Shown: piece after piece, positions 1,801 through 42,361 of the stretch | Layout: the number at the start of each line of letters is the position of its first letter | Numbering within the stretch: the stretch's first letter is position 1 | UHGV virus genome: UHGV-0324072 | Direction: 5' to 3' (one strand) | Length of the DNA stretch: 43,215 bases | DNA from: a virus | Translations under genes and position numbers: made by a program | Notes under the pieces: generated by a model | The model's database searches: none | Told to the model about the DNA's origin: nothing | The model's input: the letters and a program-made list of their open reading frames with translations, nothing else

Positions 1801-1829
1801 ACTATAATAGCGAACTATTCACATGTCAA
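1801..1829 (-). promoter_or_regulatory. sigma70-like promoter (minus strand): -35 TTGACA, 17-bp spacer with ATAGTTCGCTAT palindrome, -10 TATAGT
   Basis: rc of 1801..1829 reads TTGACA-N17-TATAGT; same architecture at 38774..38802 and 42333..42361. Confidence 0.55.
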
Positions 1830-1893
1830 TGGGCTTTTCTAAAATAATTAATATGGTACTATTCACATATCAACTGACTAAGGAGTAATTGAC

Positions 1894-2109
1894 ATGCAAC
1901 CATCTGAACTAGGCATCCGTGTAGAACAACGCCGCAAAGAACTCGGCATCTCCCAGCGCCGTTTGGCGGCCCTGACCGGCGTTTCCCAGGGCGCGATTAA
2001 CCAACTGGCACTTGGAGTAACTCAGGACGTCCGCCCGGCAACGCTGTTCAAACTGGCGGAAGTTCTGGAAGTAGACGCCAAGTGGCTGGCGTTAGGTGAA
2101 GGGGCTTAA
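1894..2109 (+). CDS. XRE/Cro-type helix-turn-helix transcriptional regulator (71 aa)
   Basis: ORF track; ELGISQRRLAALTGVSQGAINQL HTH-like segment; RBS AAGGAG 9 nt upstream. Confidence 0.6.
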   Translation: MQPSELGIRVEQRRKELGISQRRLAALTGVSQGAINQLALGVTQDVRPATLFKLAEVLEVDAKWLALGEGA

Positions 2110-4558: not shown

Positions 4559-4846
4559 CCGTTTAGCCAACCCTTCCAGCAAATTTTTATACTCTTCAAA
4601 ATATTCCTCGACCAAATCATCGCCGAAATAGAAGTCGATATACTCGAGATTATCTCTTACGTTAAGCGATGCCGACATGGTGCTTAGTTGGCGTAAGCTA
4701 ATTAGCTTCATTTCTGTTTCTACGCAGAAAGGCCGGTAGGTATCAAGATGGCAAGAGATATTGAAGCATAAAGCGAACTCTCCGGCCACGGAGTGAACCA
4801 TATACACTTCGTTTTCTGCTTTATTGTGGAAAATTACGCCTTTCAT
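4556..4846 (-). CDS. hypothetical protein (96 aa), coupled to AlpA-like regulator gene
   Basis: ORF track; ATG 4846 overlaps stop of upstream gene (ATGA). Confidence 0.5.
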   Translation of the reverse strand: MKGVIFHNKAENEVYMVHSVAGEFALCFNISCHLDTYRPFCVETEMKLISLRQLSTMSASLNVRDNLEYIDFYFGDDLVEEYFEEYKNLLEGLAKR

Positions 4847-5025
4847 TTCACGTTCTCCTTAATCCATGCTTCGACTTTATTACGGTCAAATGTTCCCGGT
4901 AAACGGCGGCCCATAACCTTAATACAGCAGTCAGGGAATTTGCCGCTGCGCAACCAGTTATTAATGGTCTGACGTGTCACCCCGATACGCTCGGCTACCT
5001 CATTCTGTGTCATGTAATGTTGCAT
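4843..5025 (-). CDS. AlpA/excisionase-family HTH DNA-binding protein (60 aa)
   Basis: ATG at 5025 (RBS AGGGGA); MTQNEVAERIGVTRQTINNWLRSGKFP typical AlpA-type HTH; track start is an upstream alternative codon. Confidence 0.55.
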   Translation of the reverse strand: MQHYMTQNEVAERIGVTRQTINNWLRSGKFPDCCIKVMGRRLPGTFDRNKVEAWIKENVK

Positions 5026-5122: not shown

Positions 5123-5152
5123 TTGAAAGTTCTTGACACATGTTTGTATAAT
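5123..5152 (+). promoter_or_regulatory. candidate sigma70 promoter (TTGAAA-N18-TATAAT) facing a 350-bp ORF-free region
   Basis: TTGAAA 5123..5128, TATAAT 5147..5152. Confidence 0.45.
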
Positions 5153-5159
5153 GGTTTTG

Positions 5160-5380
5160 GGACTTGTATATATTACGGAGTTGACGAACCCTCCCCGAGG
5201 GATTCGTCAACCCCTCCCAGACAGCTGAGATGCTTGCCTTGTGGTTTAAGGATAAGTGTATCTAAATCTCATTTAAAGAAGTAACCCGCTGAAATATCTA
5301 CTGTTTCTTAATGTGCCGTAGATTCGCAACCGTAAAAATGTAACGATTATTGGGCAGGCCCTAAGCCTGCCCTTTAGTTA
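5160..5380 (+). ncRNA. candidate small non-coding RNA between promoter 5123..5152 and terminator 5353..5380
   Basis: no ORF over 11 codons on plus strand; 13-bp stem-loop 5181..5210 near the 5' end; GGGCAGGC-ctaa-GCCTGCCC plus TTTAGTT terminator at 3' end. Confidence 0.25.
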
Positions 5381-5444: not shown

Positions 5445-5473
5445 TTGCACACCACAACATAATAGGATACTAT
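5445..5473 (+). promoter_or_regulatory. early promoter, class TTGCAC-N17-TACTATTCA
   Basis: TTGCAC 5445..5450, TACTAT 5468..5473. Confidence 0.5.
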
Positions 5474-5507
5474 TCACTTATCGAAACGAGACAGAGGAGT
5501 GAGGGTT

Positions 5508-5699
5508 ATGTTTAAGAAGGGTCAGTTGGTTAAAACTAAACGCGGATGGCAATATGTATTAGTGTTGCAGGACGAGAGCGAGTATGACGAGGATAATCTG
5601 GTTGACGTATGGGGTCTGGTAAGAAAGAAAACTGGGTTCGCCTCCCGCGATAATTTAGAACTCATCGGCAACAATTTTAAATTCAAAGGGGCGAAGTGA
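5508..5699 (+). CDS. hypothetical protein (63 aa)
   Basis: ATG 5508 behind GAGGAGTGAGGG RBS; track start at 5499 is GTG. Confidence 0.45.
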   Translation: MFKKGQLVKTKRGWQYVLVLQDESEYDEDNLVDVWGLVRKKTGFASRDNLELIGNNFKFKGAK

Positions 5700-5935
5700 T
5701 GCAAATCATAATTACGGATAACACAGTTGCCTACGAAAAAGGTGGCGACAATACTCTGGAAAGAATAGGCGTAAATATAGGTGACGTTTTTGATGTGCTT
5801 GGTACTGTATCAGGCGGTTGGTGGATTAAGGTTGGACACAACAAAGTGCCAGTAACTAAGGCCGAAGCGGAAATATACACAACGGCATCGAATCATGATG
5901 CTCGTGCCAACGACTCTGAGGGAGGTTGCCGTTAA
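5699..5935 (+). CDS. hypothetical protein (78 aa)
   Basis: ATG 5699 overlaps upstream stop (TGATG). Confidence 0.45.
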   Translation: MQIIITDNTVAYEKGGDNTLERIGVNIGDVFDVLGTVSGGWWIKVGHNKVPVTKAEAEIYTTASNHDARANDSEGGCR

Positions 5936-6633: not shown

Positions 6634-6662
6634 TTGCACGCTGGGATAGAATAGGCTACTAT
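6634..6662 (+). promoter_or_regulatory. early promoter, class TTGCAC-N17-TACTATTCA
   Basis: TTGCAC 6634..6639, TACTAT 6657..6662. Confidence 0.5.
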
Positions 6663-6691
6663 TCATTTACACAAACGAGAGGAGAGATAAT

Positions 6692-6961
6692 ATGGTACAG
6701 AGATATGAGGTAAAAGCGTGGGGCCTGCCAGAGCCTGAGATGGCTGAGTACGCATACGGCGATTATGTAGAGTACGACAGCTATAAGGAACTGGACGACT
6801 ATTACCAGGAACGTCTAGCCGACGCCGACAAGGAAATAGAAGGGCTTGTGTCGAGACTGGCAGAAGTAAACGCCGAGCTACAGAAATACAAAGACCAGTA
6901 CCCTGATTACGTCGAGTGCGCGAACTGCGGGTCGGTTACACATGTGGAGGGGGTGGAGTGA
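6692..6961 (+). CDS. hypothetical protein (89 aa)
   Basis: ORF track; RBS GAGGAGAG. Confidence 0.5.
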   Translation: MVQRYEVKAWGLPEPEMAEYAYGDYVEYDSYKELDDYYQERLADADKEIEGLVSRLAEVNAELQKYKDQYPDYVECANCGSVTHVEGVE

Positions 6962-8998: not shown

Positions 8999-9018
8999 CT
9001 ATTTTCTGCAATGACTAG

Positions 9019-9047
9019 TTGACTATTACCTACGACCCTATTATATT
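9019..9047 (+). promoter_or_regulatory. sigma70-like promoter TTGACT-N17-TATATT
   Basis: TTGACT 9019..9024, TATATT 9042..9047. Confidence 0.45.
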
Positions 9048-9080
9048 TACTCCATCGACAACGAGAACGGAGTAGAGAAG

Positions 9081-12992: not shown

Positions 12993-14462
12993 ATGTTAAC
13001 TATGCACGGTCAGAATCAGGGTGTTAAGACAAAACACCGGGAATGGCTGCATCACTTCGATAAATGGCAGAAGGTGCGCCACGCACTGGAAGGCGACCTT
13101 ATTCGCTACCTCCGTAATGTAGGGAAGAACGAGCCAGACCCTACCTACGCAGCCCAGCGCCAGGAAGAATACGAGAACGGTGCTATCTGCTACAACTTCA
13201 CAAAACGTACCCTGGCCGGGATGGTGGGGTCGGTGATGCGCAAAGACCCTGAGCAGATTATCCCGCCTGAACTGGAGTACCTGTTACGCAATGCTGACGG
13301 TTCCGGTGTCGGGCTGTGGCAGCACGCGCAGGACACTTTGATGGAGATTGATTCTGTGGGTCGTGGCGGGTTGCTGGTGGACGCCCCGGAGACAGCCGCG
13401 GCAACGGCGGCAGAACAGAACGCGGGGTTATTAAACCCGGTCATAGCATTCTACACCGCTGAGAACATCATCAACTGGCGACTGACTCGCATCGGTTCTG
13501 TTAACCGTGTGACGATGGTTGTGTTGCGCGAGGTATGGGAATACTCGGAACCGGGCGCAGAGTTCGAAACAAAGTTCGGGGAACAGTATCGTGTTCTTGA
13601 CCTGATTGAGGGCCGCTACCGCCAGCGCATTTACCGCTTCGATGCCGAAGGTGGCGCTCAGGACGAAGTAATCGAAATCTTCCCGGAACTTGGCGAACAG
13701 TTACGCGGCAAAATCCCGTTCACATTCATCGGGGCAAGCAACAACGATGCGACCATCGACGATGCTCCTTTGCTGCCGTTGGCTGAGCTTAATATCGGGC
13801 ATTTCCGCAACAGCGCGGACAATGAGGAGTCGAGCTTCGTTGTAGGCCAGCCCACGCTGTTTATCGCCCCCGGCGAGAACATGAGCATGGAACAGTGGAA
13901 AGAGGCCAACCCTCACGGTGTGCGCATGGGGTCGCGCTCAGGCCATAACATCGGTTACGGAGGTAATGCGTTTCTTGTCCAGGCGGGGGAGAATAACCTT
14001 GCCAAGCAGAACATGCTGGATAAAGAGAATCAGGCAATCCAGATTGGCGCACAGCTTATCACCCCGACGCAGCAAATCACCGCAGAATCGGCCCGCCTGC
14101 AACGCGGCGCTGATACTTCAGTTATGGCGACAATCGCGCGTAACGTAAGCATGGCGTATACAGACGCGTTGCTCTGGGTAGCTGCGATGCTCGGATTGCG
14201 TGAAGGCACAGAGGTTGATTTCAAACTGAATATGGAGTTCTTCCTGCAACCGATGACCGCTCAGGACCGTGCACAGTGGATGGCGGACATTAACGCCGGT
14301 TTGCTACCCGCCACTGCTTACTATGCTGCGTTGCGTAAGGCGGGTGTAACTGACTGGACTGACGAGGATATTCAGAACGCTATCGAGGATGCGCCTCTGC
14401 CGTTAGGTGCTGTTACTCAGGTGGCAGGGGAGATTCCGCAGTCGGTGCAGCAGCAGGAGTAA
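12993..14462 (+). CDS. portal protein
   Basis: 489-aa ORF directly after terL; RBS AAGAGGA; called by position and size. Confidence 0.65.
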   Translation: MLTMHGQNQGVKTKHREWLHHFDKWQKVRHALEGDLIRYLRNVGKNEPDPTYAAQRQEEYENGAICYNFTKRTLAGMVGSVMRKDPEQIIPPELEYLLRNADGSGVGLWQHAQDTLMEIDSVGRGGLLVDAPETAAATAAEQNAGLLNPVIAFYTAENIINWRLTRIGSVNRVTMVVLREVWEYSEPGAEFETKFGEQYRVLDLIEGRYRQRIYRFDAEGGAQDEVIEIFPELGEQLRGKIPFTFIGASNNDATIDDAPLLPLAELNIGHFRNSADNEESSFVVGQPTLFIAPGENMSMEQWKEANPHGVRMGSRSGHNIGYGGNAFLVQAGENNLAKQNMLDKENQAIQIGAQLITPTQQITAESARLQRGADTSVMATIARNVSMAYTDALLWVAAMLGLREGTEVDFKLNMEFFLQPMTAQDRAQWMADINAGLLPATAYYAALRKAGVTDWTDEDIQNAIEDAPLPLGAVTQVAGEIPQSVQQQE

Positions 14463-14467
14463 AGAAA

Positions 14468-14487
14468 AAGGCCCCGCTAGGGGCCTT
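14468..14487. terminator. bidirectional hairpin terminator AAGGCCCC-gcta-GGGGCCTT
   Basis: perfect 8-bp GC-rich stem between convergent genes. Confidence 0.6.
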
Positions 14488-14491
14488 AGCT

Positions 14492-15145
14492 TTAACGTAT
14501 ATTAGCCGCACATTTACGCACAACCCGAGGTATCGCCTCTTTCAGTTCACCCCATGTATTAACGGCCTCCATGTCAAGAAGTGTCACCAGAGCTTTCTGG
14601 ATGTCACTTCGCAACTGATTGGTCTTCGCATCCTGAGAGTCCCATGTATCGAAACCCGTTACGTCGCGGATATCTACGGATTCCTTTACCGCTTTAGCCA
14701 CCTGTATGAAGTGTCCACTGTGGCCAATTCTTCCCTCCGTGCGCTCAATCATTCGACTAACGGCAGCGTTAAGCTCGACAAAGCTCACCGCGCCAATGTT
14801 TCGTAGTTCTACCTGCCGTTGTGTGATAAAGCGGTCGATAACGAGGAAATGGAAATAGGCGCTGTATTGCTCAGCAATATATACTGCCAGATGGAGACAT
14901 GCAAAGGTGCGACCGTTTCGGCCTTTCGTCGCCCTTATGGCATTCTCGATTCCGAGTTGTTTTTCGCATTCCTCCTTGAAAATCTTGAAGCCATCCGTTG
15001 CCATGACCTGGCGAAGCTCTCTTGCCCCCATGCCGTTGTCTAAACGCCAACGGTTCATCTGGTCAACCAGCTCGTTTACGTTAATAAAGTTTTCACGGTC
15101 AAAAGTGATTTCTCCATAAGGGAACTCTAATGTTTGCAGTTTCAT
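14492..15145 (-). CDS. KilA-N domain protein (217 aa), reverse-oriented insertion
   Basis: KGRNGRTFACLHLAVYIAEQYSAYFHFLVIDRF resembles the KilA-N core; ATG 15145 with AGGAG RBS. Confidence 0.5.
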   Translation of the reverse strand: MKLQTLEFPYGEITFDRENFINVNELVDQMNRWRLDNGMGARELRQVMATDGFKIFKEECEKQLGIENAIRATKGRNGRTFACLHLAVYIAEQYSAYFHFLVIDRFITQRQVELRNIGAVSFVELNAAVSRMIERTEGRIGHSGHFIQVAKAVKESVDIRDVTGFDTWDSQDAKTNQLRSDIQKALVTLLDMEAVNTWGELKEAIPRVVRKCAANIR

Positions 15146-15172: not shown

Positions 15173-15202
15173 TTAAATTCTACATTTGAATGTAGAATTT
15201 AA
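15173..15202. promoter_or_regulatory. perfect 13-bp-arm palindrome (candidate operator) upstream of KilA-N gene
   Basis: TTAAATTCTACAT-ttga-ATGTAGAATTTAA; overlaps candidate minus-strand promoter TTGATT-N18-TAGAAT (15177..15206). Confidence 0.5.
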
Positions 15203-15287
15203 TCAAGCTCTTTTTAACCTTAAATGTGTATGATTATGCCAATACGTTACCGACTGATATGATTGTCATATCGAAACAGGAGGGTAT

Positions 15288-16792: not shown

Positions 16793-16795
16793 TAA

Positions 16796-16816
16796 AAGGC
16801 CCCATTACGGGGCCTT
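16796..16816. terminator. bidirectional hairpin terminator AAGGCCCC-attac-GGGGCCTT
   Basis: between convergent genes 16331..16792 and 16822..17025. Confidence 0.6.
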
Positions 16817-16821
16817 AGTTT

Positions 16822-17025
16822 TCAACGGAATTTTGTGTTTAAATCCTGCTCATGGACAACCCTCAGAACAGTGTCATAATCCCCGTATCTTCCAGGTTCA
16901 AATATATCTAATGCCTTGTAAGCAGACATTGCGTCAGGGAAAACCTGCAGAACCTTTTTAACCCGGCACAAGTCACCGTCGAACTCTTCATCGAACTCTT
17001 GAACTACTTCGCAAATTGCATACAT
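16822..17025 (-). CDS. hypothetical protein (67 aa), reverse-oriented insertion with own promoter
   Basis: ATG 17025, RBS AGGAGG; promoter 17053..17081. Confidence 0.5.
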   Translation of the reverse strand: MYAICEVVQEFDEEFDGDLCRVKKVLQVFPDAMSAYKALDIFEPGRYGDYDTVLRVVHEQDLNTKFR

Positions 17026-17052
17026 TTTTCACCTCCTGTTTAAGTTAACTGA

Positions 17053-17081
17053 ATAGTACCCTATTATATTGGGGTGTGCAA
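17053..17081 (-). promoter_or_regulatory. promoter TTGCAC-N17-TACTATTCA (minus strand)
   Basis: rc of 17053..17081; 31-bp core almost identical to 26174..26204. Confidence 0.5.
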
Positions 17082-17133: not shown

Positions 17134-17149
17134 AACTATTCGAATAGTT
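17134..17149. promoter_or_regulatory. perfect 16-bp palindrome AACTATTCGAATAGTT (candidate operator)
   Basis: self-complementary; overlaps TTGACT (17148..17153) of a candidate plus-strand promoter. Confidence 0.45.
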
Positions 17150-17182
17150 GACTTTTCACTAAAAATATGATAAGCTCCACCT

Positions 17183-17383
17183 GAGCTTGTGAAGTATGAA
17201 CAAGCGACCGCGGCGCGGGCAGGTAACGGAGCGGGACGTAAGTCCTGAGTGTAGTTACGCTGACGCGTTCGGAAGGGCCATACTCTATTGCTTGTGTAAA
17301 AAGTAACTGGTTTACTGAGATTACGCCGTTTCTATGTTTAAATGATAAGGACTAGCGCCCCGCTTTATGGCGGGGCTTTACTT
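17183..17383 (+). ncRNA. candidate small RNA or leader transcript, ending at terminator 17357..17383
   Basis: about 200 bp with no ORF over 37 codons, between candidate promoter (TTGACT 17148 / TAAGCT 17171) and GCCCCGC-tttatg-GCGGGGC plus TTTACTT. Confidence 0.2.
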
Positions 17384-17400
17384 ATCGAGAAAGGGGAAAC

Positions 17401-23202: not shown

Positions 23203-24369
23203 ATGGCTACAACTCCTTTTAAGGGCGCGAATACCGCGCAATTCTATGTGGCGGAAGTGACCCCGGGTGTAACACCGACTAACCCGGTCTGGTCACCATT
23301 ACGTAACACGGGCGGTGTTCCTGCCATTACCCGTGACACACTGACCTCCAACGAACTCGACGGCAGCCGTGAAACTACATCCATCCGCACCGGTAACAAA
23401 CAGGTTAGCGGTGAATACGCAATTGAGCTTAGCTCTAAAAGCCAGGATGACTGGTTGGCAGGTGCTTTAGGCTCTACGTGGCGATCCGGTGTTTCTCTGC
23501 CAGGACTATCGATCACCGTCGCACCCGCGGGCAAGACGTTCACACGCGCTACCGGCAGTTTTATCACTGACGGAGTTGGGGTAGGCGACCTGATTGCGTT
23601 TACCGACTTAACAGGCGATAACGCAAAACCATTTATTGTTACCGCAGTAACGGCTACCGTTGTTACTGGTGCAGGCATCCAACACACCCTGACCACCGAG
23701 ACAAAAACTAGTAAGGCTAAAACTGGCGACACGCTGGAAACCGGTAACACATGTAAGACGTTCTCTATTCTCACCTGGTACAAAGGACAGTGCGGCGGGA
23801 CTTACGCATACACACTAACCAAAGGTGTGGAAGTTTCCGGTTTCACCGTTGAGCAGGCCGTTAACGCGATGGTTACAGGTAGCTTCCCGTTCATCGGGCG
23901 CAGCCAGGAGATTCTTACTACGCCGCCGTCTGGTTCCAACTTCTCCTCTGTCACGTTTGGTGATGAGCCATTCTCCTCGGTTGACGTTTCTGTGTTTGAC
24001 GGCTATACGCCGTTGCGTTGCGACAGCCTGACCATCACCAACGACAACAGCGCATCCGCGCAGTTCGAACTCGGCAACACTAACGTAGCGTTTGTAGAAC
24101 GTAACCGCGCGGCTAACACCTTCTCCATCTCCGGCAAGCTGTATGACATGGCGATGATTCAGAAGTTTATCAACGAGCAGCAGGTAGAGATTAACTCTAT
24201 TCTGGCGGGGGTAAACGGGGCTATGTCTTTCAGTTTGAAACGTGCGGAGCTTACGGCAGTTACCCCAGAGATTGGCGGACCTGAGTCAATCACTCAGTCC
24301 ATTGAAGGCCAGGCTACTGGCAACCAGTACCAGTCGTCTATTGTTATTCAGCGTATCACCTACGCATAA
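23203..24369 (+). CDS. major tail protein (tail tube)
   Basis: ATG 23203 (RBS AGAGG); about 390 aa, Thr/Gly-rich; followed by a strong terminator; called by position. Confidence 0.55.
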   Translation: MATTPFKGANTAQFYVAEVTPGVTPTNPVWSPLRNTGGVPAITRDTLTSNELDGSRETTSIRTGNKQVSGEYAIELSSKSQDDWLAGALGSTWRSGVSLPGLSITVAPAGKTFTRATGSFITDGVGVGDLIAFTDLTGDNAKPFIVTAVTATVVTGAGIQHTLTTETKTSKAKTGDTLETGNTCKTFSILTWYKGQCGGTYAYTLTKGVEVSGFTVEQAVNAMVTGSFPFIGRSQEILTTPPSGSNFSSVTFGDEPFSSVDVSVFDGYTPLRCDSLTITNDNSASAQFELGNTNVAFVERNRAANTFSISGKLYDMAMIQKFINEQQVEINSILAGVNGAMSFSLKRAELTAVTPEIGGPESITQSIEGQATGNQYQSSIVIQRITYA

Positions 24370-24373
24370 AACT

Positions 24374-24398
24374 AAGGCCCCGAAAGGGGCCTTTTTTA
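24374..24398. terminator. bidirectional terminator AAGGCCCC-gaaa-GGGGCCTT plus T-run
   Basis: perfect 8-bp stem followed by TTTTTATT. Confidence 0.65.
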
Positions 24399-24629
24399 TT
24401 ACTCATCAATGTTACTCCTGTACTCCCGTAACTTTTCCAGACTTTCAATTGCTTCCGCTAAGTCGGTTCCGGTGTCCTTGTGTCCACGTAAACCCATGCA
24501 CAATAGCTTCTTCAATGCGTGCTGTAACGCCGGGTCGCGGATGTCGAAAGCGCGGAGCACATCATAAACGTCTACTGTCATAGTGCTGCCGTGAGTATTT
24601 GTCATTGTGCGGTTGTATTTTGAAGTCAT
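24399..24629 (-). CDS. small protein (76 aa), possibly DUF3310-like; third gene of reverse cassette
   Basis: ATG 24629 overlaps stop of upstream gene (ATGA); VYDVLRAF...QHALKKLL motif recalled from DUF3310. Confidence 0.4.
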   Translation of the reverse strand: MTSKYNRTMTNTHGSTMTVDVYDVLRAFDIRDPALQHALKKLLCMGLRGHKDTGTDLAEAIESLEKLREYRSNIDE

Positions 24630-25756
24630 CCCAGCATCTCCGGTGAAATAGTTAAACGTGCGACCTCGCCATATTCGGCGCTATAAGTAATTACGTTTGC
24701 GCTACGCCCAGACATCCATCCGCCGCGCGAGGCGTAGGCGTCTTTCGCCGCTAAGGTGCGGTGTTGCTCAACAATCATGTTACGGCTTTCTACAATCTTC
24801 TGGTGGTGCAGGTGGCCTACGTGGGCGTAGCTGTAAACACTCTCGCCGAACGCTTTACGGAACTTGGCAATCATAACCGGTTCGATAGCGTAGAATCGTG
24901 CTTTATGCCCGTGATGGAAGAACAGCGTCGTTTTGCCGTGTTGCACCATCTTGTAAACATCCGGCGACGTATCAACAATCACTCGGCTGTCGTTTGAGTA
25001 TAAAACCGTGAACATTTCGGCAAGCCATACGGAGCCAACAGGGTCGTGGTTACCTTGAACGATTAAAAGTTTTACTGTGTGATGCTTAACCAGCGCCATA
25101 TCAACAACACGGCGGACCATACGAATCATGTAACGTACCAGTTTCTGATAGCGAGTATCCGCATCTAATACATGGCGCGACTCGGGGGTAACGGCATCAA
25201 GACTATCGAAGTGTGCGAAGTCCCCAAGCAGGTTAATAACTCCTGTTCCTGCATCCGGTGCTTTCTGAAACGCCGCGTCGAACCACCGAGAGAACAGGTC
25301 TTCTGCAATCTTCATGTCCCAGTCGTCGCCGCTCTCATCGGCCCATGCCAGCATACCGAGATGGAAATCAGATACAGTGTAAAGATTGAGTAGCTTGTCG
25401 TCACGTTTGGCGCGCGCCGCTTTAACAGGCGCAACGGGCGTAATCTCTGACTTCATGCCCTCTATTACGGCTTTCATCAATTCAACCTGACGTTCGGCGT
25501 CGGTATCAGTCTTAACCCATTGCAACTTAGTGTTGCCGAACTCGTCCACAAGTGACGACGTTCCTTTAATCTTGTAGCCGTCTGGCACAAGGTGGCTAAC
25601 GTCGCGCCCGTGGCCCACGCCTTTCTTAGCCAGCTTCGCTTTACGGATACGAATTACGCGGTCTGAGATGCCGTATTTACGGGCGATATCTACATTCTTC
25701 ATACCGGCGTTCAATTCTTCCTGCAACTGTTCGTCGGTTATTTTCTTCCGGGCCAT
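24626..25756 (-). CDS. N-terminal HTH fused to calcineurin-like (Mre11/SbcD-type) metallophosphoesterase
   Basis: phosphoesterase motifs in order: SDFHLG, LGDFAHFD, QGNHD, FFHHGHK, GHLHH; N-terminal KNVDIARKYGISDRVIRIR HTH-like segment; RBS GAGGA. Confidence 0.6.
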   Translation of the reverse strand: MARKKITDEQLQEELNAGMKNVDIARKYGISDRVIRIRKAKLAKKGVGHGRDVSHLVPDGYKIKGTSSLVDEFGNTKLQWVKTDTDAERQVELMKAVIEGMKSEITPVAPVKAARAKRDDKLLNLYTVSDFHLGMLAWADESGDDWDMKIAEDLFSRWFDAAFQKAPDAGTGVINLLGDFAHFDSLDAVTPESRHVLDADTRYQKLVRYMIRMVRRVVDMALVKHHTVKLLIVQGNHDPVGSVWLAEMFTVLYSNDSRVIVDTSPDVYKMVQHGKTTLFFHHGHKARFYAIEPVMIAKFRKAFGESVYSYAHVGHLHHQKIVESRNMIVEQHRTLAAKDAYASRGGWMSGRSANVITYSAEYGEVARLTISPEMLG

Positions 25757-25820
25757 GCTTATTCCTCGTGCTTAGGATTTGTCCTATTTAACCACAGTGG
25801 ATTCCTTTAAATAAAGGCAA

Positions 25821-26147
25821 CTATTTACTTTCTGCGCCTATCGCCCACCCTGTCATTACCATTTGCAGACGGGTGGCTGTCAGTAGGCTATAGAAAGCAT
25901 CTCCGTTTTTCTCTACCGAACGTATCACTGTGTAGGTTACGGCCTGCGGGGGTAGGTCCGATTTACCAACCTCTACAGCGGCCTCACACTCGCGAACCGT
26001 AGAGTCCTTAAATGCCTTTACGATAGTAGGGTCAGCTTTCTCAAGCACACCAGAAGTCATAAGAACAGATTCAGTAAATACCTGTTCGCACGGGGACCCA
26101 AAAGTAGCAAAAGGCATAAACCCCAGAGCTAATACTAATTTACGCAT
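25821..26147 (-). CDS. secreted/periplasmic protein (108 aa) with N-terminal signal peptide; first gene of reverse cassette
   Basis: MRKLVLALGFMPFATFG signal-like N-terminus, two Cys; RBS GAGGA; promoter at 26176..26204. Confidence 0.5.
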   Translation of the reverse strand: MRKLVLALGFMPFATFGSPCEQVFTESVLMTSGVLEKADPTIVKAFKDSTVRECEAAVEVGKSDLPPQAVTYTVIRSVEKNGDAFYSLLTATRLQMVMTGWAIGAESK

Positions 26148-26175
26148 AATTATTTCCTCAGTAAGTTACAGGTGA

Positions 26176-26204
26176 ATAGTACACTATTATATTGGGGTGT
26201 GCAA
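26176..26204 (-). promoter_or_regulatory. promoter TTGCAC-N17-TACTATTCA (minus strand) driving reverse cassette
   Basis: rc of 26176..26204; near-identical to 17053..17081. Confidence 0.5.
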
Positions 26205-26271
26205 GTAATGTGATAGAATAATTTTGCGCCTAGTGTCGCACACGAAAAGCGGGTGGTTCCCGTCTGGCGCA

Positions 26272-34246: not shown

Positions 34247-36178
34247 ATGTCAAGCGGATGCGGTGACGTTTTAAGCCTGGCGGATTTACAAACCGCCAAG
34301 AAACACCAAATTTTTGAAGCCGAGGTTATCACCGGTAAAGCTGGCGGTGTAGCTACGGGTGCTGATATCGATTACGCGACAAATCAGGTTACAGGGCAGA
34401 CTCAGAAGACGCTCCAGGCCGTGTTGCGTGACGCCGGGTTCAGACCTGCGCCATTCACATTCGAAACAGGTGGGACTTTGGGCGTTAACGACGCTGACCT
34501 GGCGGTGTTGTGGCCAGGGCCATCAGGCGACGGCAACTATTATGCATGGAAAGGCGCCCTGCCAAAAACCATCCCGGCATCTTCAACCCCGGCGTCTACG
34601 GGCGGAGTAGGCCAGACCGCATGGGTTGCCGTTAGTGAAGCTGCATTGCGCCGTGATTTGGCCCTAAGCACTGGCGCAGGGCTAGTCGGTACGTCTTCGG
34701 GTCGCACAGTGCAAGGCGAGGTTGACCATTTCAAAATAGGGTATATGACACCCGATGATTTCGGCGCGGTGGGTGATGGTGTTACCGACGACACCGCGCC
34801 TTTGCAACAGGCTATTGACTATTGCTCAAGCAACGGTATCGCGTTAAGAATCCCCGCAAAATCTTATGTTTGGAATGGCGGTATTATAACTTCACCCGTA
34901 ACAATAATCGGTGACAGACGTCCTGATTACAATCTTAGCTCCAATTCTATGTCTAACGGGTCTGTTATAATTGGCAATTTAAGATTTTCCGCAAGCCAGG
35001 TGATTATTAAGTCACTTGGTGTGCGTAGGCCTACAGGCTCCCCCGGAGATTGTCTGGTGTTATCGACCGATAACTATGCTGGTGGGTCTTGTATTGTTCA
35101 AGATGTAGTTGCCGCGGGCCTTTCCGGTTCGGACACGTACCACAGCGTTCTTGTTGAAGGCTACGATTCCGCGCATGTATCTCAAATAACTGGCGGTTAT
35201 AATCTTTTTGGCCTCGCGATTAAGTCAAGAAACGTTGTTGCCAGAGGCGTAATAACCGTAAGCTGTGATACTGGCGTTATCATTAAATCTGATAGTGAGT
35301 TCAGCACGGCAAAAAATGTGGTGCTGGACGGGCACATTAATGTCGGTAATGGTGTTTCTAGTCAAGGTGTTTGGATTCACAGCACAACCGCACAACTTGA
35401 GCGTATTACCTGCGCAAACTTACAAAGCATCGATTCCGCTATACATATGCGGATTAAGTCCGAAAACGTAGCTAATGACGTGCAAATTGTTGGGGCAAAT
35501 TATTCAGGATCTACTTATGCGGATGTGCTCGTCGAAGGCACTTCGGCTGGCACGTTGTACAATGTTAGTTTAGATAGTATAACCGCAGTAAATAGCCAGA
35601 AATTTATGGCTGCAGGTTTCTGTGAACAACTGATGGTAACAGGATTCTATGGGTCCCTGAAACCTGGCGCTCCCGCCGATACTGCGTTTGAGGTTAGCGC
35701 CGCCGTAGGGCTTTTTAGCGGGTCAAATATCCAACTAGTCCGTCAATACCGCAGTGACCTAATGACAATGAATCTCGGTAACAGTTATCTTAATAATAGA
35801 TTATCATCTGTTAAGGCGAAAGTAATAGGAAACGGCAAACCTAGGCCGGGGTATAAAGAACAGAATCTTAGCGGCGCTGCGGCTACAATGATTGTTGGCG
35901 ACAGTTTGGGGCCCTCTGGTGTTGTGTCTGTCACCGCGATATCCGCCGGCATGTCATTCAGCAGTATTGCTATTAATGACGACTATGGTCAGCCGGTTAA
36001 GCCAGGTTTTCTTCTAATAATCCGAAACGCATCCGCTATCTCGTTCGTTATGAACCATAATCCAGGGTCTGGTGGAATCGCAAATAACGGGGCGGTTGGT
36101 AAGACCATTGCGGGCGGAGACACTATAATGTACGTTTTTGACGGGGCGAATTGGCGTCAGACTCCATCAATAACATAA
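34247..36178 (+). CDS. tailspike protein with pectate-lyase-type right-handed beta-helix
   Basis: MTPDDFGAVGDGVTDDTAPLQQAIDY beta-helix entry motif; 643 aa; RBS AAGAGGA. Confidence 0.7.
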   Translation: MSSGCGDVLSLADLQTAKKHQIFEAEVITGKAGGVATGADIDYATNQVTGQTQKTLQAVLRDAGFRPAPFTFETGGTLGVNDADLAVLWPGPSGDGNYYAWKGALPKTIPASSTPASTGGVGQTAWVAVSEAALRRDLALSTGAGLVGTSSGRTVQGEVDHFKIGYMTPDDFGAVGDGVTDDTAPLQQAIDYCSSNGIALRIPAKSYVWNGGIITSPVTIIGDRRPDYNLSSNSMSNGSVIIGNLRFSASQVIIKSLGVRRPTGSPGDCLVLSTDNYAGGSCIVQDVVAAGLSGSDTYHSVLVEGYDSAHVSQITGGYNLFGLAIKSRNVVARGVITVSCDTGVIIKSDSEFSTAKNVVLDGHINVGNGVSSQGVWIHSTTAQLERITCANLQSIDSAIHMRIKSENVANDVQIVGANYSGSTYADVLVEGTSAGTLYNVSLDSITAVNSQKFMAAGFCEQLMVTGFYGSLKPGAPADTAFEVSAAVGLFSGSNIQLVRQYRSDLMTMNLGNSYLNNRLSSVKAKVIGNGKPRPGYKEQNLSGAAATMIVGDSLGPSGVVSVTAISAGMSFSSIAINDDYGQPVKPGFLLIIRNASAISFVMNHNPGSGGIANNGAVGKTIAGGDTIMYVFDGANWRQTPSIT

Positions 36179-36182
36179 AACT

Positions 36183-36205
36183 AAGGCCCCGTTTGGGGCC
36201 TTTTC
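36183..36205. terminator. bidirectional terminator AAGGCCCC-gttt-GGGGCCTT between tailspike and replication module
   Basis: perfect 8-bp stem flanked by T-rich tracts. Confidence 0.65.
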
Positions 36206-36206
36206 T

Positions 36207-36344
36207 CTACTCTTCCGATAACTTCTCCAGCACAAACGCCAGTTGCGCATTAGCGGCATCTCTCTGTTGCCGTAGGCGTAGAACCTCCTCTTCGAGTTCC
36301 TTGATACGTTTTTGCAATGCTGGAATCGGGGCTATGATGTTCAT
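36207..36344 (-). CDS. small coiled-coil protein (45 aa) coupled to end of SNF2 helicase gene
   Basis: ATG 36344 overlaps helicase stop (ATGA); MNIIAPIPALQKRIKELEEEVLRLRQQRDAANAQLAFVLEKLSEE. Confidence 0.35.
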   Translation of the reverse strand: MNIIAPIPALQKRIKELEEEVLRLRQQRDAANAQLAFVLEKLSEE

Positions 36345-37765
36345 TTCTTACCTCGTCTCTTCATGTAGTTAAGCAACTCTTCCTGTACCGATTTCTTCTC
36401 GTCGGTACGCGCGGCAACAACCTCGTCCAGCGTGTCTTTAGCGACTATGTGATAAAGGAACACCGGGCGCTCGTGCCCAGCTTGTTTCTGGCGAACAGGG
36501 CCGATGCGCTCGACAACCTGCAAATAGTGCTCAAGATTCCAGCCTTGTGAAATAAACGCCAGATGATGGCCGCCGTCCTGTAAATTCAAACCATGCCCGG
36601 CTGACGCAGGGTGTACGCATAAGATTTCTATTTCGCCGCGGTTCCACGCTTCCATCTGCTTATTACCCTTCGCGCCTTTGGAAAACGCCTGCGCCTGTGG
36701 GAATCGCTTAAGGATGCGCTCAAGTTCGTGCTTGAACTGATAGGCGACCAGCAACGGCGCGCCCTGCAACTCCTCCACAATTGACTCCAGCGCATCCAGT
36801 TTCGTATCGTGCACTTTCTCCCAGTCTTTCGTTGCTTCTCCGTCTGGTCCGGATACATACACGGCACCGGATGCAATCTGCAAACACTTCGACGTCTTCG
36901 CCGCCGCGTTAGCCGCTTCGACTTCCCCGCTCTCCAGTTCCGCAAATAACTTCTCCTCCATATCTATGTACGCCTGACGCGCTTTCTTCGGCAGGTCGAT
37001 TTCAACAGGTACGATAACCGGCGCTTCGCATCCGAACCACTCAGCGGCGTCAATCGTGAGACTGATGTCCTTCATCTTCTGGTGGATTTCAGTATCCGCA
37101 CCCGGGCGGGCGTGGTATTCGCGCGCCATAGCAGATTTGCCTTTCTGCACCGAGTTAAACCAGCGGTCGGTGAATGCCGTGTACGAAGAACCGAGGCGCT
37201 CGCCCGCGTCGATAAACCAGTTCTGTCCCCACAAGTCCTTGAGGCCGTTAGGCGATGGTGTACCTGTCAGGTTGATAAAACGCTTAACCTTTCCGAACGC
37301 CACTCTACTAAGCGCCTTCGCCCGCTTGCTGCCGCCTGAACGGCTGCGGAATGACTTCAGTTTCGTGCTTTCATCGGCAACGATAACGGTAAAAGGCCAG
37401 TCGTCTTTGCCGTAGTAGTCAATCAACCACTCTATTACCTCATAGTTCGTGCACACCACGTTAGCGTCCGACTCCAGCGCCGCGATGCGGCGCTTCTCTG
37501 AACCGGTCGCGTCTACGACACGCAGACATGGGAAATTCCACTTAGTTTGTTCCGCCGGCCATGTGCCTGATGCAACGCGCAACGGGGCGAGGATTAACAC
37601 GCGGTCCTCTTCTGTAAGCTGCCCGTTGCGGAACAGTCGGTTTAATGTCCACAGTACGCTGCCAGTCTTCCCGGCGCCCATGCTCGCCCAAATATTACAG
37701 CGATGGTGCCGCAACATGAACGAAGTCATTAGCTTCTGGTATTCGCGCCTTTGAAACTTACTCAT
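36341..37765 (-). CDS. SNF2/DEAD-box superfamily II helicase
   Basis: Walker A-like SMGAGKTG, DEAD-like VIVADESTKL, helicase C-terminal domain segment. Confidence 0.75.
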   Translation of the reverse strand: MSKFQRREYQKLMTSFMLRHHRCNIWASMGAGKTGSVLWTLNRLFRNGQLTEEDRVLILAPLRVASGTWPAEQTKWNFPCLRVVDATGSEKRRIAALESDANVVCTNYEVIEWLIDYYGKDDWPFTVIVADESTKLKSFRSRSGGSKRAKALSRVAFGKVKRFINLTGTPSPNGLKDLWGQNWFIDAGERLGSSYTAFTDRWFNSVQKGKSAMAREYHARPGADTEIHQKMKDISLTIDAAEWFGCEAPVIVPVEIDLPKKARQAYIDMEEKLFAELESGEVEAANAAAKTSKCLQIASGAVYVSGPDGEATKDWEKVHDTKLDALESIVEELQGAPLLVAYQFKHELERILKRFPQAQAFSKGAKGNKQMEAWNRGEIEILCVHPASAGHGLNLQDGGHHLAFISQGWNLEHYLQVVERIGPVRQKQAGHERPVFLYHIVAKDTLDEVVAARTDEKKSVQEELLNYMKRRGKK

Positions 37766-38552
37766 TTACGGCCCCCATGAACGCCTTTATAAATTCAGCG
37801 GCTACTTGCGGGACGATAGCATTGCCGTAACCGCGCAATCGTCCCACTCTGGCGGGTACCCCATTAGCCAGCGGGAATGTGCTGGGTTCAACTGGCCTGA
37901 ATTTTCCATCCCGGCATCCGAGCCAGTCAGCATCTGACCAGAACCCGTTAGGCGGATTGGCTGTGTCAGAGATGCCTCTGTTTGCAGATTGTGGCCCCCG
38001 TTCCTGCCCTGATGGCCTGCTCCCGCCGAGTTGTTCGCACACGGTGTTGGCCAGTTGCTGCGCTCCGAAGAACAATCGATTCCTTTTGTGCGGTGCGCCG
38101 ACGCTACAAGCTGGGAGTACGGCAAACCCGACGGCGTAGTCTTCTCTTTCCAGGTGAGTTTGTAAATCGCACATCCACGATTTTGCAATTGCTGCCGCAA
38201 CCTGCTCCCCAAAGATGACTGGAGGGTGGCACTCGCTGATGAGGTCGAGGAGCACAGGTGCGAGGTGTCTCTGGTCGAACTGTCCGAGTTGCTTTCCTGC
38301 CGTGCTAAACGGTTGGCAAGGCGGACTTCCCGTCCATATAGGCGTATCTTCAGAAACTCCCGCAAGTCTGAGCGCGAGAGGCCAGCCGCCGATACCCGCG
38401 AAAAAATGACACTGGGTGAACCCGTCAAGGTCTTCTGGTCTAACTTCGGTAATGCTTCTTTCATCTACAACTCCAAAAGGTATGTGACCCTGTTTTATTA
38501 ATTCACGCAGCCACGCGGCTGCGCCTTTATCCCATTCGTTGTAATAGTTCAT
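37758..38552 (-). CDS. DNA (cytosine-5)-methyltransferase, compact; conserved motifs split between two frames
   Basis: motifs [34 protein letters not shown] and X GNAIVPQV in this frame; motif IX-like [10 protein letters not shown] lies in overlapping ORF 37802..38464. Confidence 0.55.
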
Positions 38553-38740
38553 TTTGCCACCAGAACTAACTCTTTACGCCCGAACGCCGTAATATTGCCG
38601 GTTACATCTTCGATAACCAGTTTACCGTTCGACTCGACGAACACTGTATCAACGGCAACAGGACGACGGGTCTTAACGTTGAAAATCATGTCGCCTGGTA
38701 CGATGTCACGTGCAGGTTTGCGGTCATATTCGTGTTTCAT
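38549..38740 (-). CDS. hypothetical protein (63 aa)
   Basis: ORF track; ATGA coupling to methyltransferase gene. Confidence 0.45.
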   Translation of the reverse strand: MKHEYDRKPARDIVPGDMIFNVKTRRPVAVDTVFVESNGKLVIEDVTGNITAFGRKELVLVAK

Positions 38741-38770: not shown

Positions 38771-39058
38771 CTAACTATAATAGTTCGCTATTAGGTCGTC
38801 AACCTGTTTAAACGAACCAACGACAAAAACATTTGCACCACGTTTACGCATCCGCTCGTGCTCTCGTATCTGGTGCGGGTCTGGCTTCGTGTTTTCGTCT
38901 TTCTTAACCTCGACGAACCAGACGATGCCGCCTGGGAGAATTACCAGCAGGTCGGGGGCGCCGGAGCGCCCCTCATAAGACAGCTTACGAACGAGGCCAC
39001 CAATGGCCTCGAATCGCTCTTTTGCGTATTTCTGGATGCACCCCTCAGGCGTACTCAT
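38771..39058 (-). CDS. VRR-NUC domain nuclease (PD-(D/E)xK)
   Basis: GAPDLLVILPGGIVWFVEVKK motif. Confidence 0.7.
   Translation of the reverse strand: MSTPEGCIQKYAKERFEAIGGLVRKLSYEGRSGAPDLLVILPGGIVWFVEVKKDENTKPDPHQIREHERMRKRGANVFVVGSFKQVDDLIANYYS
38774..38802 (-). promoter_or_regulatory. sigma70-like promoter TTGACG-N17-TATAGT with palindromic spacer (minus strand), embedded in 3' end of VRR-NUC gene
   Basis: rc of 38774..38802; spacer contains AATAGCGAACTAT. Confidence 0.5.
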
Positions 39059-41593: not shown

Positions 41594-41613
41594 GATTTTC
41601 GACCCTTAGTAAA

Positions 41614-41633
41614 AAGGCCCAATGAAGGGCCTT
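41614..41633 (-). terminator. hairpin AAGGCCC-aatgaa-GGGCCTT, candidate attenuator between SSB-like and polymerase genes
   Basis: followed on minus strand by a T-run (rc of AAAAA 41609..41613). Confidence 0.4.
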
Positions 41634-41652
41634 AGTTAAATTGATTCAGATA

Positions 41653-42332: not shown

Positions 42333-42361
42333 ACTATAATAGCTAACTATTCAGGTGTCAA
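42333..42361 (-). promoter_or_regulatory. sigma70-like promoter TTGACA-N17-TATAGT with palindromic spacer (minus strand)
   Basis: rc of 42333..42361; spacer contains AATAGTTAGCTAT. Confidence 0.5.

Follow-up and report, generated by a model that had tools for sequence, protein, structure and literature searches.

The virus genome UHGV-0324072 was analysed as a single stretch of 43,215 nucleotides, to which we refer as the window. It is 95-97 % identical to Escherichia coli siphophages of the genus Kagunavirus (vB-Eco-KMB35 and Bas70-76 of BASEL), and its more distant kin are Salmonella Jerseyviruses such as SETP3, both genera belonging to the Guernseyvirinae. These identities place it among the Kagunavirus-like siphophages of the Guernseyvirinae, a group described as virulent. 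Here we characterize a short repeated unit of this genome that reads as a host sigma-70 promoter with a palindrome at its core, and we relate this unit to the gain, loss and exchange of accessory genes at fixed positions, called slots, within the structural genes.

The gene order of the window matches that of its Kagunavirus and Jerseyvirus relatives. On the plus strand, small early-type genes and lysis genes extend from about 5.5 to 11 kb and are followed by packaging, head and tail genes from 11 to 36 kb; the minus strand carries DNA-metabolism genes at 36-43 kb and 1-5 kb. The structural block is broken by three short minus-strand units: slot D (14492-15145) between the portal and head-morphogenesis genes, slot A (16822-17025) between the Hoc-like and spanin genes, and slot B (24399-26147) between the major tail and tail chaperone genes. 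By synteny with annotated relatives, all open reading frames (ORFs) of at least 640 aa in the window are a primase-helicase, DNA polymerase, tape measure, tail protein or tailspike, and inspection of the window ORFs and of the gene content of annotated relatives revealed no RNA polymerase gene. Among the genes of annotated relatives there is likewise no integrase or recombinase gene and no CI-type repressor gene; an exonuclease and a Gp2.5-like annealing protein are annotated in them.

The repeated unit stands at the head of two of these slots. Copy A (17050..17081, minus strand; TTGCAC-ACCCCAATATAATAGGG-TACTAT-TCA, with the palindrome AATAG-GGTA-CTATT) precedes the slot A gene, and copy B (26173..26204, minus strand), identical to copy A at 31 of 32 positions, precedes the three-gene cassette of slot B. 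A sequence-only reading of the window had described this pair as two 31-mers at 17051..17081 and 26174..26204 that differ at one position, and we verified both the coordinates and the difference. A repeat finder extends the pair to 32 nt (17050-17081 and 26173-26204, 97 % identity), and the 31-mer, allowing up to 3 mismatches, does not occur in any of 100 dinucleotide-preserving shuffles. When the copies are aligned with 70 nt of flanking sequence, identity is limited to about 32 nt, from TTGCAC through TACTATTCA. This excludes a longer duplicated segment that includes coding sequence, since flank similarity ends at the 32-nt borders, and an assembly artefact is excluded by the presence of the unit at the same positions in over 30 independent IMG/VR contigs as well as in relatives from GenBank. 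Nothing speaks in favour of either explanation, and we regard their probability as negligible.

Other parts of that description were narrower or broader than the data allow. Of the GTAAGTTA-like leader said to follow both copies, the shared part is only the 7-nt TAAGTTA, shifted by 2 nt between the two sites. The module, thought to be present at two loci, is found in at least four full copies in the window. A third, overlooked copy lies on the opposite strand (copy C, 5445..5476, plus strand, TTGCAC-ACCACAACATAATAGGA-TACTAT-TCA; its 31-mer match at 5445-5475 has 3 mismatches) and heads a cluster of small early-type genes starting at 5508. The fourth, equally overlooked (6634..6665, plus strand, TTGCAC-GCTGGGATAGAATAGGC-TACTAT-TCA), keeps the hexamers and the palindrome with a diverged spacer and lies upstream of an ORF at 6692. 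Also missed were a partial copy at 1848..1865 (plus strand, TTAATATGGTACTATTCA), which has one mismatch in the palindrome and no good -35 element and lies directly upstream of a Cro-like HTH_3 gene, and three promoters of a second architecture with the same core as the module. We refer to the unit represented by copies A to C and by the copy at 6634 as class I and to the second architecture as class II. The repeat is real and statistically solid, but ordinary for phage genomes. Separately, between the endolysin gene and the plus-strand ORF that comes next there is a degenerate remnant of the module (9014-9052; AATATAATAGGGTCGTAGG on the minus strand beside ACTAGTTGACTATT), which may represent a promoter copy in decay.

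On the coding strand all four full copies read TTGCAC-N17-TACTAT-TCA, and at every copy, in the window as in relatives, a Shine-Dalgarno sequence and a start codon follow 20-30 nt downstream. The 17-bp spacing is optimal for sigma-70. The hexamers match the consensus at 7 of 12 positions (TTGCAC at 3 of 6 positions of TTGACA, TACTAT at 4 of 6) and include the critical TTG and TA...T. The earlier view of copies A and B as promoters for minus-strand genes is borne out by the orientation, spacing and position of TTGCAC-N17-TACTAT relative to the Shine-Dalgarno sequence and the ATG, their activity being predicted. At sites orthologous to slot B in relatives of increasing distance, the spacer has a different sequence, but its length of 17 bp, the type of the -35 and a -10 of the TAnnAT type are kept (TTGCAT-17-TATTAT, TTGCAT-17-TAGTAT, TTGCGC-17-TATATT, TTGCAA-17-CAGTAT). 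Such retention of hexamers and spacing while the spacer drifts is the pattern predicted by purifying selection on a sigma-70 promoter. The RefSeq record of SETP3 has promoters annotated at equivalent places. An internal perfect TATAAT was considered as the -10 and rejected: its first base is the most polymorphic of the unit (T/C) and at copy A no -35 lies 17 bp upstream of it, unlike TACTAT, which is invariant among the copies.

Judged by these features, the class I unit is a standard host sigma-70 promoter of predicted activity. It is not special to the insertions: two copies, those at 5445 and 6634, stand before plus-strand early-type clusters of the phage itself, and the class I module is, as far as its distribution in the sequence tells, the general non-late promoter type of the phage.

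The core of the unit is a 14-bp palindrome, AATAG-N4-CTATT, spanning the spacer and the -10 region. It occurs exactly at seven places in the window (1806, 5461, 6650, 17052, 26175, 38779 and 42338), compared to 0.03 expected, and all seven are intergenic promoter positions; one further palindrome, at 1850, has a single mismatch. Searching for AATAGTNNNCTATTAT with up to 2 mismatches gives 11 matches versus 0.75 expected. SETP3 has five exact copies, at orthologous sites. Class II consists of three minus-strand sites with the architecture TTGAC(A/G)-N17-TATAGT and the palindrome within, upstream of DNA-metabolism operons. The site at 1801..1829 (TTGACA-N17-TATAGT, palindrome in the spacer) heads the operon of a 166-aa gene and is placed back to back with the partial copy at 1848. 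That at 38774..38802 (TTGACG-N17-TATAGT) is upstream of 38549-38740, a methyltransferase and a helicase, and that at 42333..42361 (TTGACA-N17-TATAGT), whose orthologous promoter is annotated in SETP3, is upstream of the genes for the Gp2.5-like single-stranded DNA-binding protein and DNA polymerase.

The two classes differ in how the palindrome is placed. Its 18-bp asymmetric form TGAATAG-N4-CTATTAT is reversed in orientation between them, the palindrome centre lies about 6 bp closer to the start site in class I than in class II, and relative to the -35 there are two registers in the window and three in SETP3. It overlaps the -10 in both architectures. Its arms are constant, whereas the four central nucleotides and the remaining spacer vary; the promoter profiles were selected on the palindrome arms, so that only the variability of the centre is informative. 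That both genera retain arms within the spacer, and do so in several registers, is best explained by a separate DNA-binding factor, which would read an operator overlapping the -10. The palindrome is most likely a common operator for a small phage DNA-binding protein.

Two small helix-turn-helix (HTH) proteins are candidates for this role. The better candidate reader of the palindrome appears to be a 56-aa HTH_17 protein (4843..5013, minus strand; Xis/AlpA/MerR-like), which is 80 % identical between Kagunavirus and Jerseyvirus. The alternative is a 71-aa Cro/C1-type HTH_3 protein (1894..2109, plus strand), only 48 % identical between the genera, whose upstream region contains two motif copies 44 bp apart. 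In relatives whose polymerase is about 65 % identical, HTH_17 was not detected, palindrome copies were also absent, and no alternative enriched palindrome of the 5-N4-5 form was found. From these comparisons HTH_17 seems a better candidate than HTH_3, and we treat both assignments as leads. As a side observation, the GenBank record of Bas73 (L001, PQ850603.1; ~33.9-34.3 kb and 37112-37432) lists no plus-strand coding sequence for the Cro-like HTH_3 protein, at a place where tblastn recovers an identical 71-aa ORF, and its annotated ORF Bas73_0055 overlaps promoter copy C; both are likely annotation errors.

The relation of the module to its downstream genes was examined in relatives from IMG/VR and GenBank, whose loci are labelled L0nn. 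Around each module copy the upstream flank is site-specific and the downstream genes are variable. Slot A is empty in 9 distinct genomes, including close relatives whose tail chaperone is 99 % identical to that of the window; there the gap from Hoc to spanin is 362-387 bp and contains no module. In 13 genomes the slot is occupied, the gap is 552-1157 bp and the palindrome lies at a fixed offset, and one additional genome has a mutated module copy. Insertion and module are therefore present or absent together at slot A (13 occupied with, 9 empty without), which is the comparison that the sequence-only reading had proposed as a check. At least 8 unrelated gene families serve as slot A cargo in relatives. 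In the window the cargo (16822..17025, minus strand) encodes a 67-aa acidic protein of a PHROGs 'unknown function' family, with no Pfam match, and its GC content is 42.6 % versus 50.9 % for the window.

Slot D is empty (99 bp) in four loci of relatives and holds a class I module with cargo in three, and in the window, L043 and SETP3 the slot D gene has a different promoter. The window's slot D gene (14492..15145, minus strand) encodes a 217-aa protein assigned to a phrog 'amidase' with a weak KilA-N match. An inverted repeat of 10 bp, ATTCTACATT/AATGTAGAAT, is particular to its non-class-I promoter (15177-15206 on the minus strand, TTGATT-N18-TAGAAT) and suggests that the gene is regulated separately.

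Slot B is always occupied in Kagunavirus and Jerseyvirus. In the window its three genes (24399..26147, minus strand) encode a 108-aa protein, a 376-aa metallophosphoesterase and a 76-aa protein. The metallophosphoesterase ('DNA repair exonuclease', phrog_704) is the conserved core of the slot, and the 108-aa protein has a signal-peptide-like N-terminus and belongs to a PHROGs 'unknown function' family with no Pfam match. The proposal that the whole cassette is an acquired insertion holds for its first and last genes, which vary, but not for the slot, which is old and never empty. Among relatives the product of the first gene is in some cases the same 108-aa secreted-type protein as in the window and in others a small membrane protein with the annotation superinfection immunity; the distal genes include those for a 161-aa HAD-like protein together with a 184/189-aa P-loop protein, for HNH endonucleases and for Ant/Rha-type proteins (examples are L007, L056, L064, L088 and SETP3, L055 12728-15208). 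We considered the 76-aa ORF as a remnant of the 184/189-aa P-loop kinase and rejected this for lack of similarity; a preprint on ApeA likewise had no bearing on the cassette genes.

The same cargo recurs in different slots. A DNA methyltransferase unit occupies slot A of L089 and slot D of L032, with DNA homology that begins at the terminator, covers the gene and leader and ends at the -35. A two-gene unit is found in slot D of L025 and in slot A of L032, with 95 % and 93 % amino-acid identity. The second gene of the copy C operon (5696..5935, plus strand, 79 aa) has a homologue in slot A of L088, preceded by a class I module with a leader of the copy C type. More generally, module sub-variants go with particular cargo genes. 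The idea of a portable promoter unit that comes with accessory genes is supported by the tracking of slot A occupancy and by the sharing of cassettes across slots, but has to be qualified in that the promoter is a general one and not insertion-specific. On this evidence the promoter does move together with accessory genes.

At the other end, all slots finish in one family of hairpins, AAGGCCCC-loop-GGGGCCTT, predicted to act as bidirectional terminators. Members at 16793..16822 (AAGGCCCC-ATTAC-GGGGCCTT), 24365..24396 (AAGGCCCC-GAAA-GGGGCCTT) and 14459..14494 form the distal borders of slot A, slot B and slot D, the last between the portal and head-morphogenesis genes. All members stand at convergent gene junctions, and these three are the distal borders of reverse-oriented slots. 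The repeat finder returned the promoter and terminator families as the two clearly over-represented families in the window. Further members of the terminator family lie at 36174-36209 and, as a weaker copy, at 41607-41637.

An explanation has to account for the repeat family, the positions and orientations of its members, the occupancy of the slots and the recurrence of the same cassettes in different slots. We propose, with a probability of roughly 0.7, that the unit combines a sigma-70 promoter with a palindromic operator and that cassettes are exchanged through promoter and terminator arms. Early in infection, host sigma-70 RNA polymerase would start about 7 nt beyond TACTAT. Copies A and B would fire leftward into reverse-oriented accessory units among the late structural genes, and the copies at 5445 and 6634 would fire rightward into small early-type gene clusters. 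A small phage HTH protein would bind the palindrome, co-regulate all non-late promoters and probably shut them off, repression being the most likely mode because the palindrome overlaps the -10. The promoter and leader (about 50 bp, of which the leader is about 20 nt) and the bidirectional terminator (about 30 bp) would serve as short homology arms, by which terminator-gene-leader-promoter units could be gained, lost and exchanged among slots A, B and D and the early operon. This homologous exchange could plausibly be run by the phage exonuclease and the Gp2.5-like annealing protein. The putative roles of the palindrome as operator and of the unit as homology arm would explain why the copies are near-identical outside the hexamers.

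Several points weigh against this proposal. A simple consensus scanner did not call the class I sites, a miss explained by hexamers that match the consensus at only 7 of 12 positions. In the literature that we searched, no transcription-start, RNA-seq or reporter data were found for Jerseyvirus or Kagunavirus (Guernseyvirinae). In L097 and L098 the slot B promoter keeps its hexamers and has lost the palindrome (AATAC...CTATT), so that the palindrome is not required for a promoter at this position. At the level of clades, the co-occurrence of HTH_17 and the palindrome amounts effectively to one clade split. The recognition helix of the HTH_3 protein differs between Kagunavirus and Jerseyvirus despite the common palindrome arms, and co-variation leans negative on HTH_3 as the palindrome reader. 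Finally, recent spread alone could explain near-identical copies. This last point leads to an account in which the units are plain sigma-70 promoters without an operator, their near-identity comes from recent descent by cassette spread or gene conversion, and their symmetry is an AT-rich, -10-like by-product. Consistent with it, CTATT overlaps the -10 hexamer in every architecture, the promoters of L097 and L098 persist without the palindrome, and the association of sub-variants with particular cargo indicates descent. However, sigma-70 contacts no specific bases in the spacer, the location of the AATAG arm, and yet this arm is kept in two classes, in two to three registers and in two genera, while the central 4 nt and the adjacent spacer bases vary freely; in addition, seven exact palindromes stand against 0.03 expected. 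We consider plain promoters unlikely, though they are to be taken seriously.

Other rivals assign the palindrome or the unit a different function. The motif itself is already published for sister phages: in Kagunavirus fBC-Eco01, PHIRE gave seven copies (PP1-PP7, consensus tgAATAGTa-ccTATTat-T) that were called phage-RNA-polymerase promoters (PMC9825357, Table S2), VB_EcoS-Golestan has seven PHIRE promoters too (PMC7203180), and Salmonella phage SGP-C has the regulatory element TAATAGTACCCTATTATGTT (PMC8790156). PP1 and PP2 of fBC-Eco01 (TGAATAGTACCCTATTATAT) are identical to window positions 17050-17069. The fBC-Eco01 and SGP-C papers list the motif only, without interpreting it as -35 and -10 elements and without mention of its palindrome, the two architectures or the slots for cassettes. 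That PHIRE finds the motif as a phage-specific repeat, and that PMC9825357 labels its seven copies 'Phage RNAP promoter', would suit a phage-encoded polymerase, but PHIRE reports repeats and not polymerase specificity, and the units have properly spaced sigma-70-type hexamers. Because these genomes encode no RNA polymerase, as the window and its annotated relatives show, the published assignment is wrong, and we give a phage polymerase very little chance.

A bidirectional promoter, which would also restart plus-strand late transcription after each reverse unit, could be read from the plus strand of copy B, where GTTACA-N17-TATATT lies across the module and matches the class II layout, and from the opposite orientation of TGAATAG-N4-CTATTAT in the two classes. 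The plus-strand -35, however, lies in the cargo leader and disappears with a change of cargo, copy A lacks it, and separate, conserved plus-strand promoter-like sites adjoin the modules (26211-26219 and 17148-17176); we find this reading improbable. Still less credible is that palindrome and hairpin are integron-like targets of a site-specific recombinase or homing enzyme without a regulatory function. Cassettes are indeed bordered by a palindrome-bearing unit and a hairpin, and some relatives have genes for HNH endonucleases in slot B. Against this, the annotated relatives have no integrase or recombinase gene, the palindrome is also present in the promoters of core replication operons, which are no cassette borders, and the junctions vary from the module end to the Shine-Dalgarno sequence, as homologous exchange would produce, instead of being invariant.

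The proposed combination of promoter, operator and exchange has counterparts in better known phages. Promoter-early stem-loops (PeSLs) have been described in T4-type myoviruses (Arbiol et al. 2010, PMC2839356; Comeau et al. 2014, PMC4122927). Like the signals of the window, PeSLs are short, repeated and conserved sequences that comprise promoters of sigma-70 type and terminators; they flank non-essential genes and mark the ends of the insertions, deletions and replacements by which close relatives differ (here at slots A and D). Judged from its sequence, the present system would work like PeSLs, with standard promoter and terminator signals bounding swappable non-essential genes. It differs in belonging to a siphovirus of about 43 kb and in having an unrelated sequence, the PeSL consensus itself not having been directly aligned. 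Furthermore, its promoter and terminator stand at opposite ends of a reverse-oriented unit within the late operon and not in an adjacent composite motif, and it has only three or four fixed slots as opposed to long hyperplastic regions. Mini-circles have been detected physically for PeSLs, by PCR with outward primers, whereas the signals of the present system are predicted ones. In its most complete form, a PeSL-like system of the Guernseyvirinae would use one promoter-operator and one terminator both as the punctuation of all non-late genes, with HTH_17 as the one master regulator, and as homology arms by which the exonuclease and annealing protein would shift accessory genes between the early operon and the three slots of the late structural operon; this full version we put forward tentatively, as rather less than an even chance.

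Morons of lambdoid and HK97-like phages, reported by Juhala, Hendrix and colleagues, are autonomous units of promoter, gene and terminator between genes that are adjacent in relatives. They usually bring unrelated promoters and are expressed from prophages. Slot A has the same parts in its promoter (17050-17081), gene (16822-17025) and terminator (16793-16822), the signals being predicted ones; the flanking genes are adjacent in relatives (9 genomes with an empty slot A, four loci with an empty slot D), and the cargo has a lower GC content and an accessory function. Unlike morons, these units belong to a virulent phage with no prophage expression, and they use the phage's own standard promoter and terminator, which would make them interchangeable. 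The putative operator can be compared with OR and OL of lambdoid phages, where Cro and CI bind palindromes of about 14-17 bp with variable centres that overlap early promoters. Here, too, several promoters have a palindrome on the -35 or -10, and a small HTH gene lies beside paired sites in the divergent region 1801-1865. Unlike OR and OL, there is one site per promoter with no tandem triplets, and the phage is virulent with no CI-like repressor.

These results correct a published annotation, in that the motif is not a phage-polymerase promoter, and offer a rule for reading Kagunavirus and Jerseyvirus genomes: non-late units would start at an AATAG-N4-CTATT promoter and accessory units would end at a AAGGCCCC...GGGGCCTT hairpin. 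They extend the shuffling of cassettes by promoters and terminators, known in T4-type phages, to a group of small siphoviruses, and introduce no new principle. The three natural slots, tolerated empty or filled and furnished with a ready promoter and terminator, are candidate sites for payload genes; such small phages are in use as engineering chassis, the BASEL paper naming CM001 as one.

A few signals near the modules deserve mention. Just upstream of copy C, a promoter-like TTGAAA-N18-TATAAT (5123-5152, plus strand) lies about 215 nt ahead of a strong terminator (5352-5372). The interval 5123-5375 has no convincing ORF and folds unusually well (z = -4.5, 0 of 200 shuffles), SETP3 has an annotated promoter at the place equivalent to 5123-5152, and the interval may be a small early RNA or leader. 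Upstream of the spanin gene, a plus-strand promoter-like site at 17148-17176, TTGACT-N17 (with TG)-TAAGCT, is conserved in SETP3; the GC-rich leader downstream of it, some 200 nt long, closes with a hairpin and T-run (17357-17376) just before the gene. A perfect 16-bp palindrome, AACTATTCGAATAGTT (17134-17149), composed of the same GAATAG half-site as the module, overlaps the -35 of this site. The layout of 17134-17400 resembles that of lambda PR'/6S RNA, an analogy that hints at antitermination control of the late genes; an Rfam scan of the whole window, including this region, gave no family at gathering score. At slot B, a plus-strand promoter-like site (26192-26219) with the extended -10 TGaTAGAAT (26211-26219) abuts copy B, its weak -35, TTGGGG, lying inside the module. 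TGnTAGAAT is kept in all Kagunavirus relatives examined, and this site probably explains the conserved site-specific flank and restarts the transcription of tail genes after slot B.

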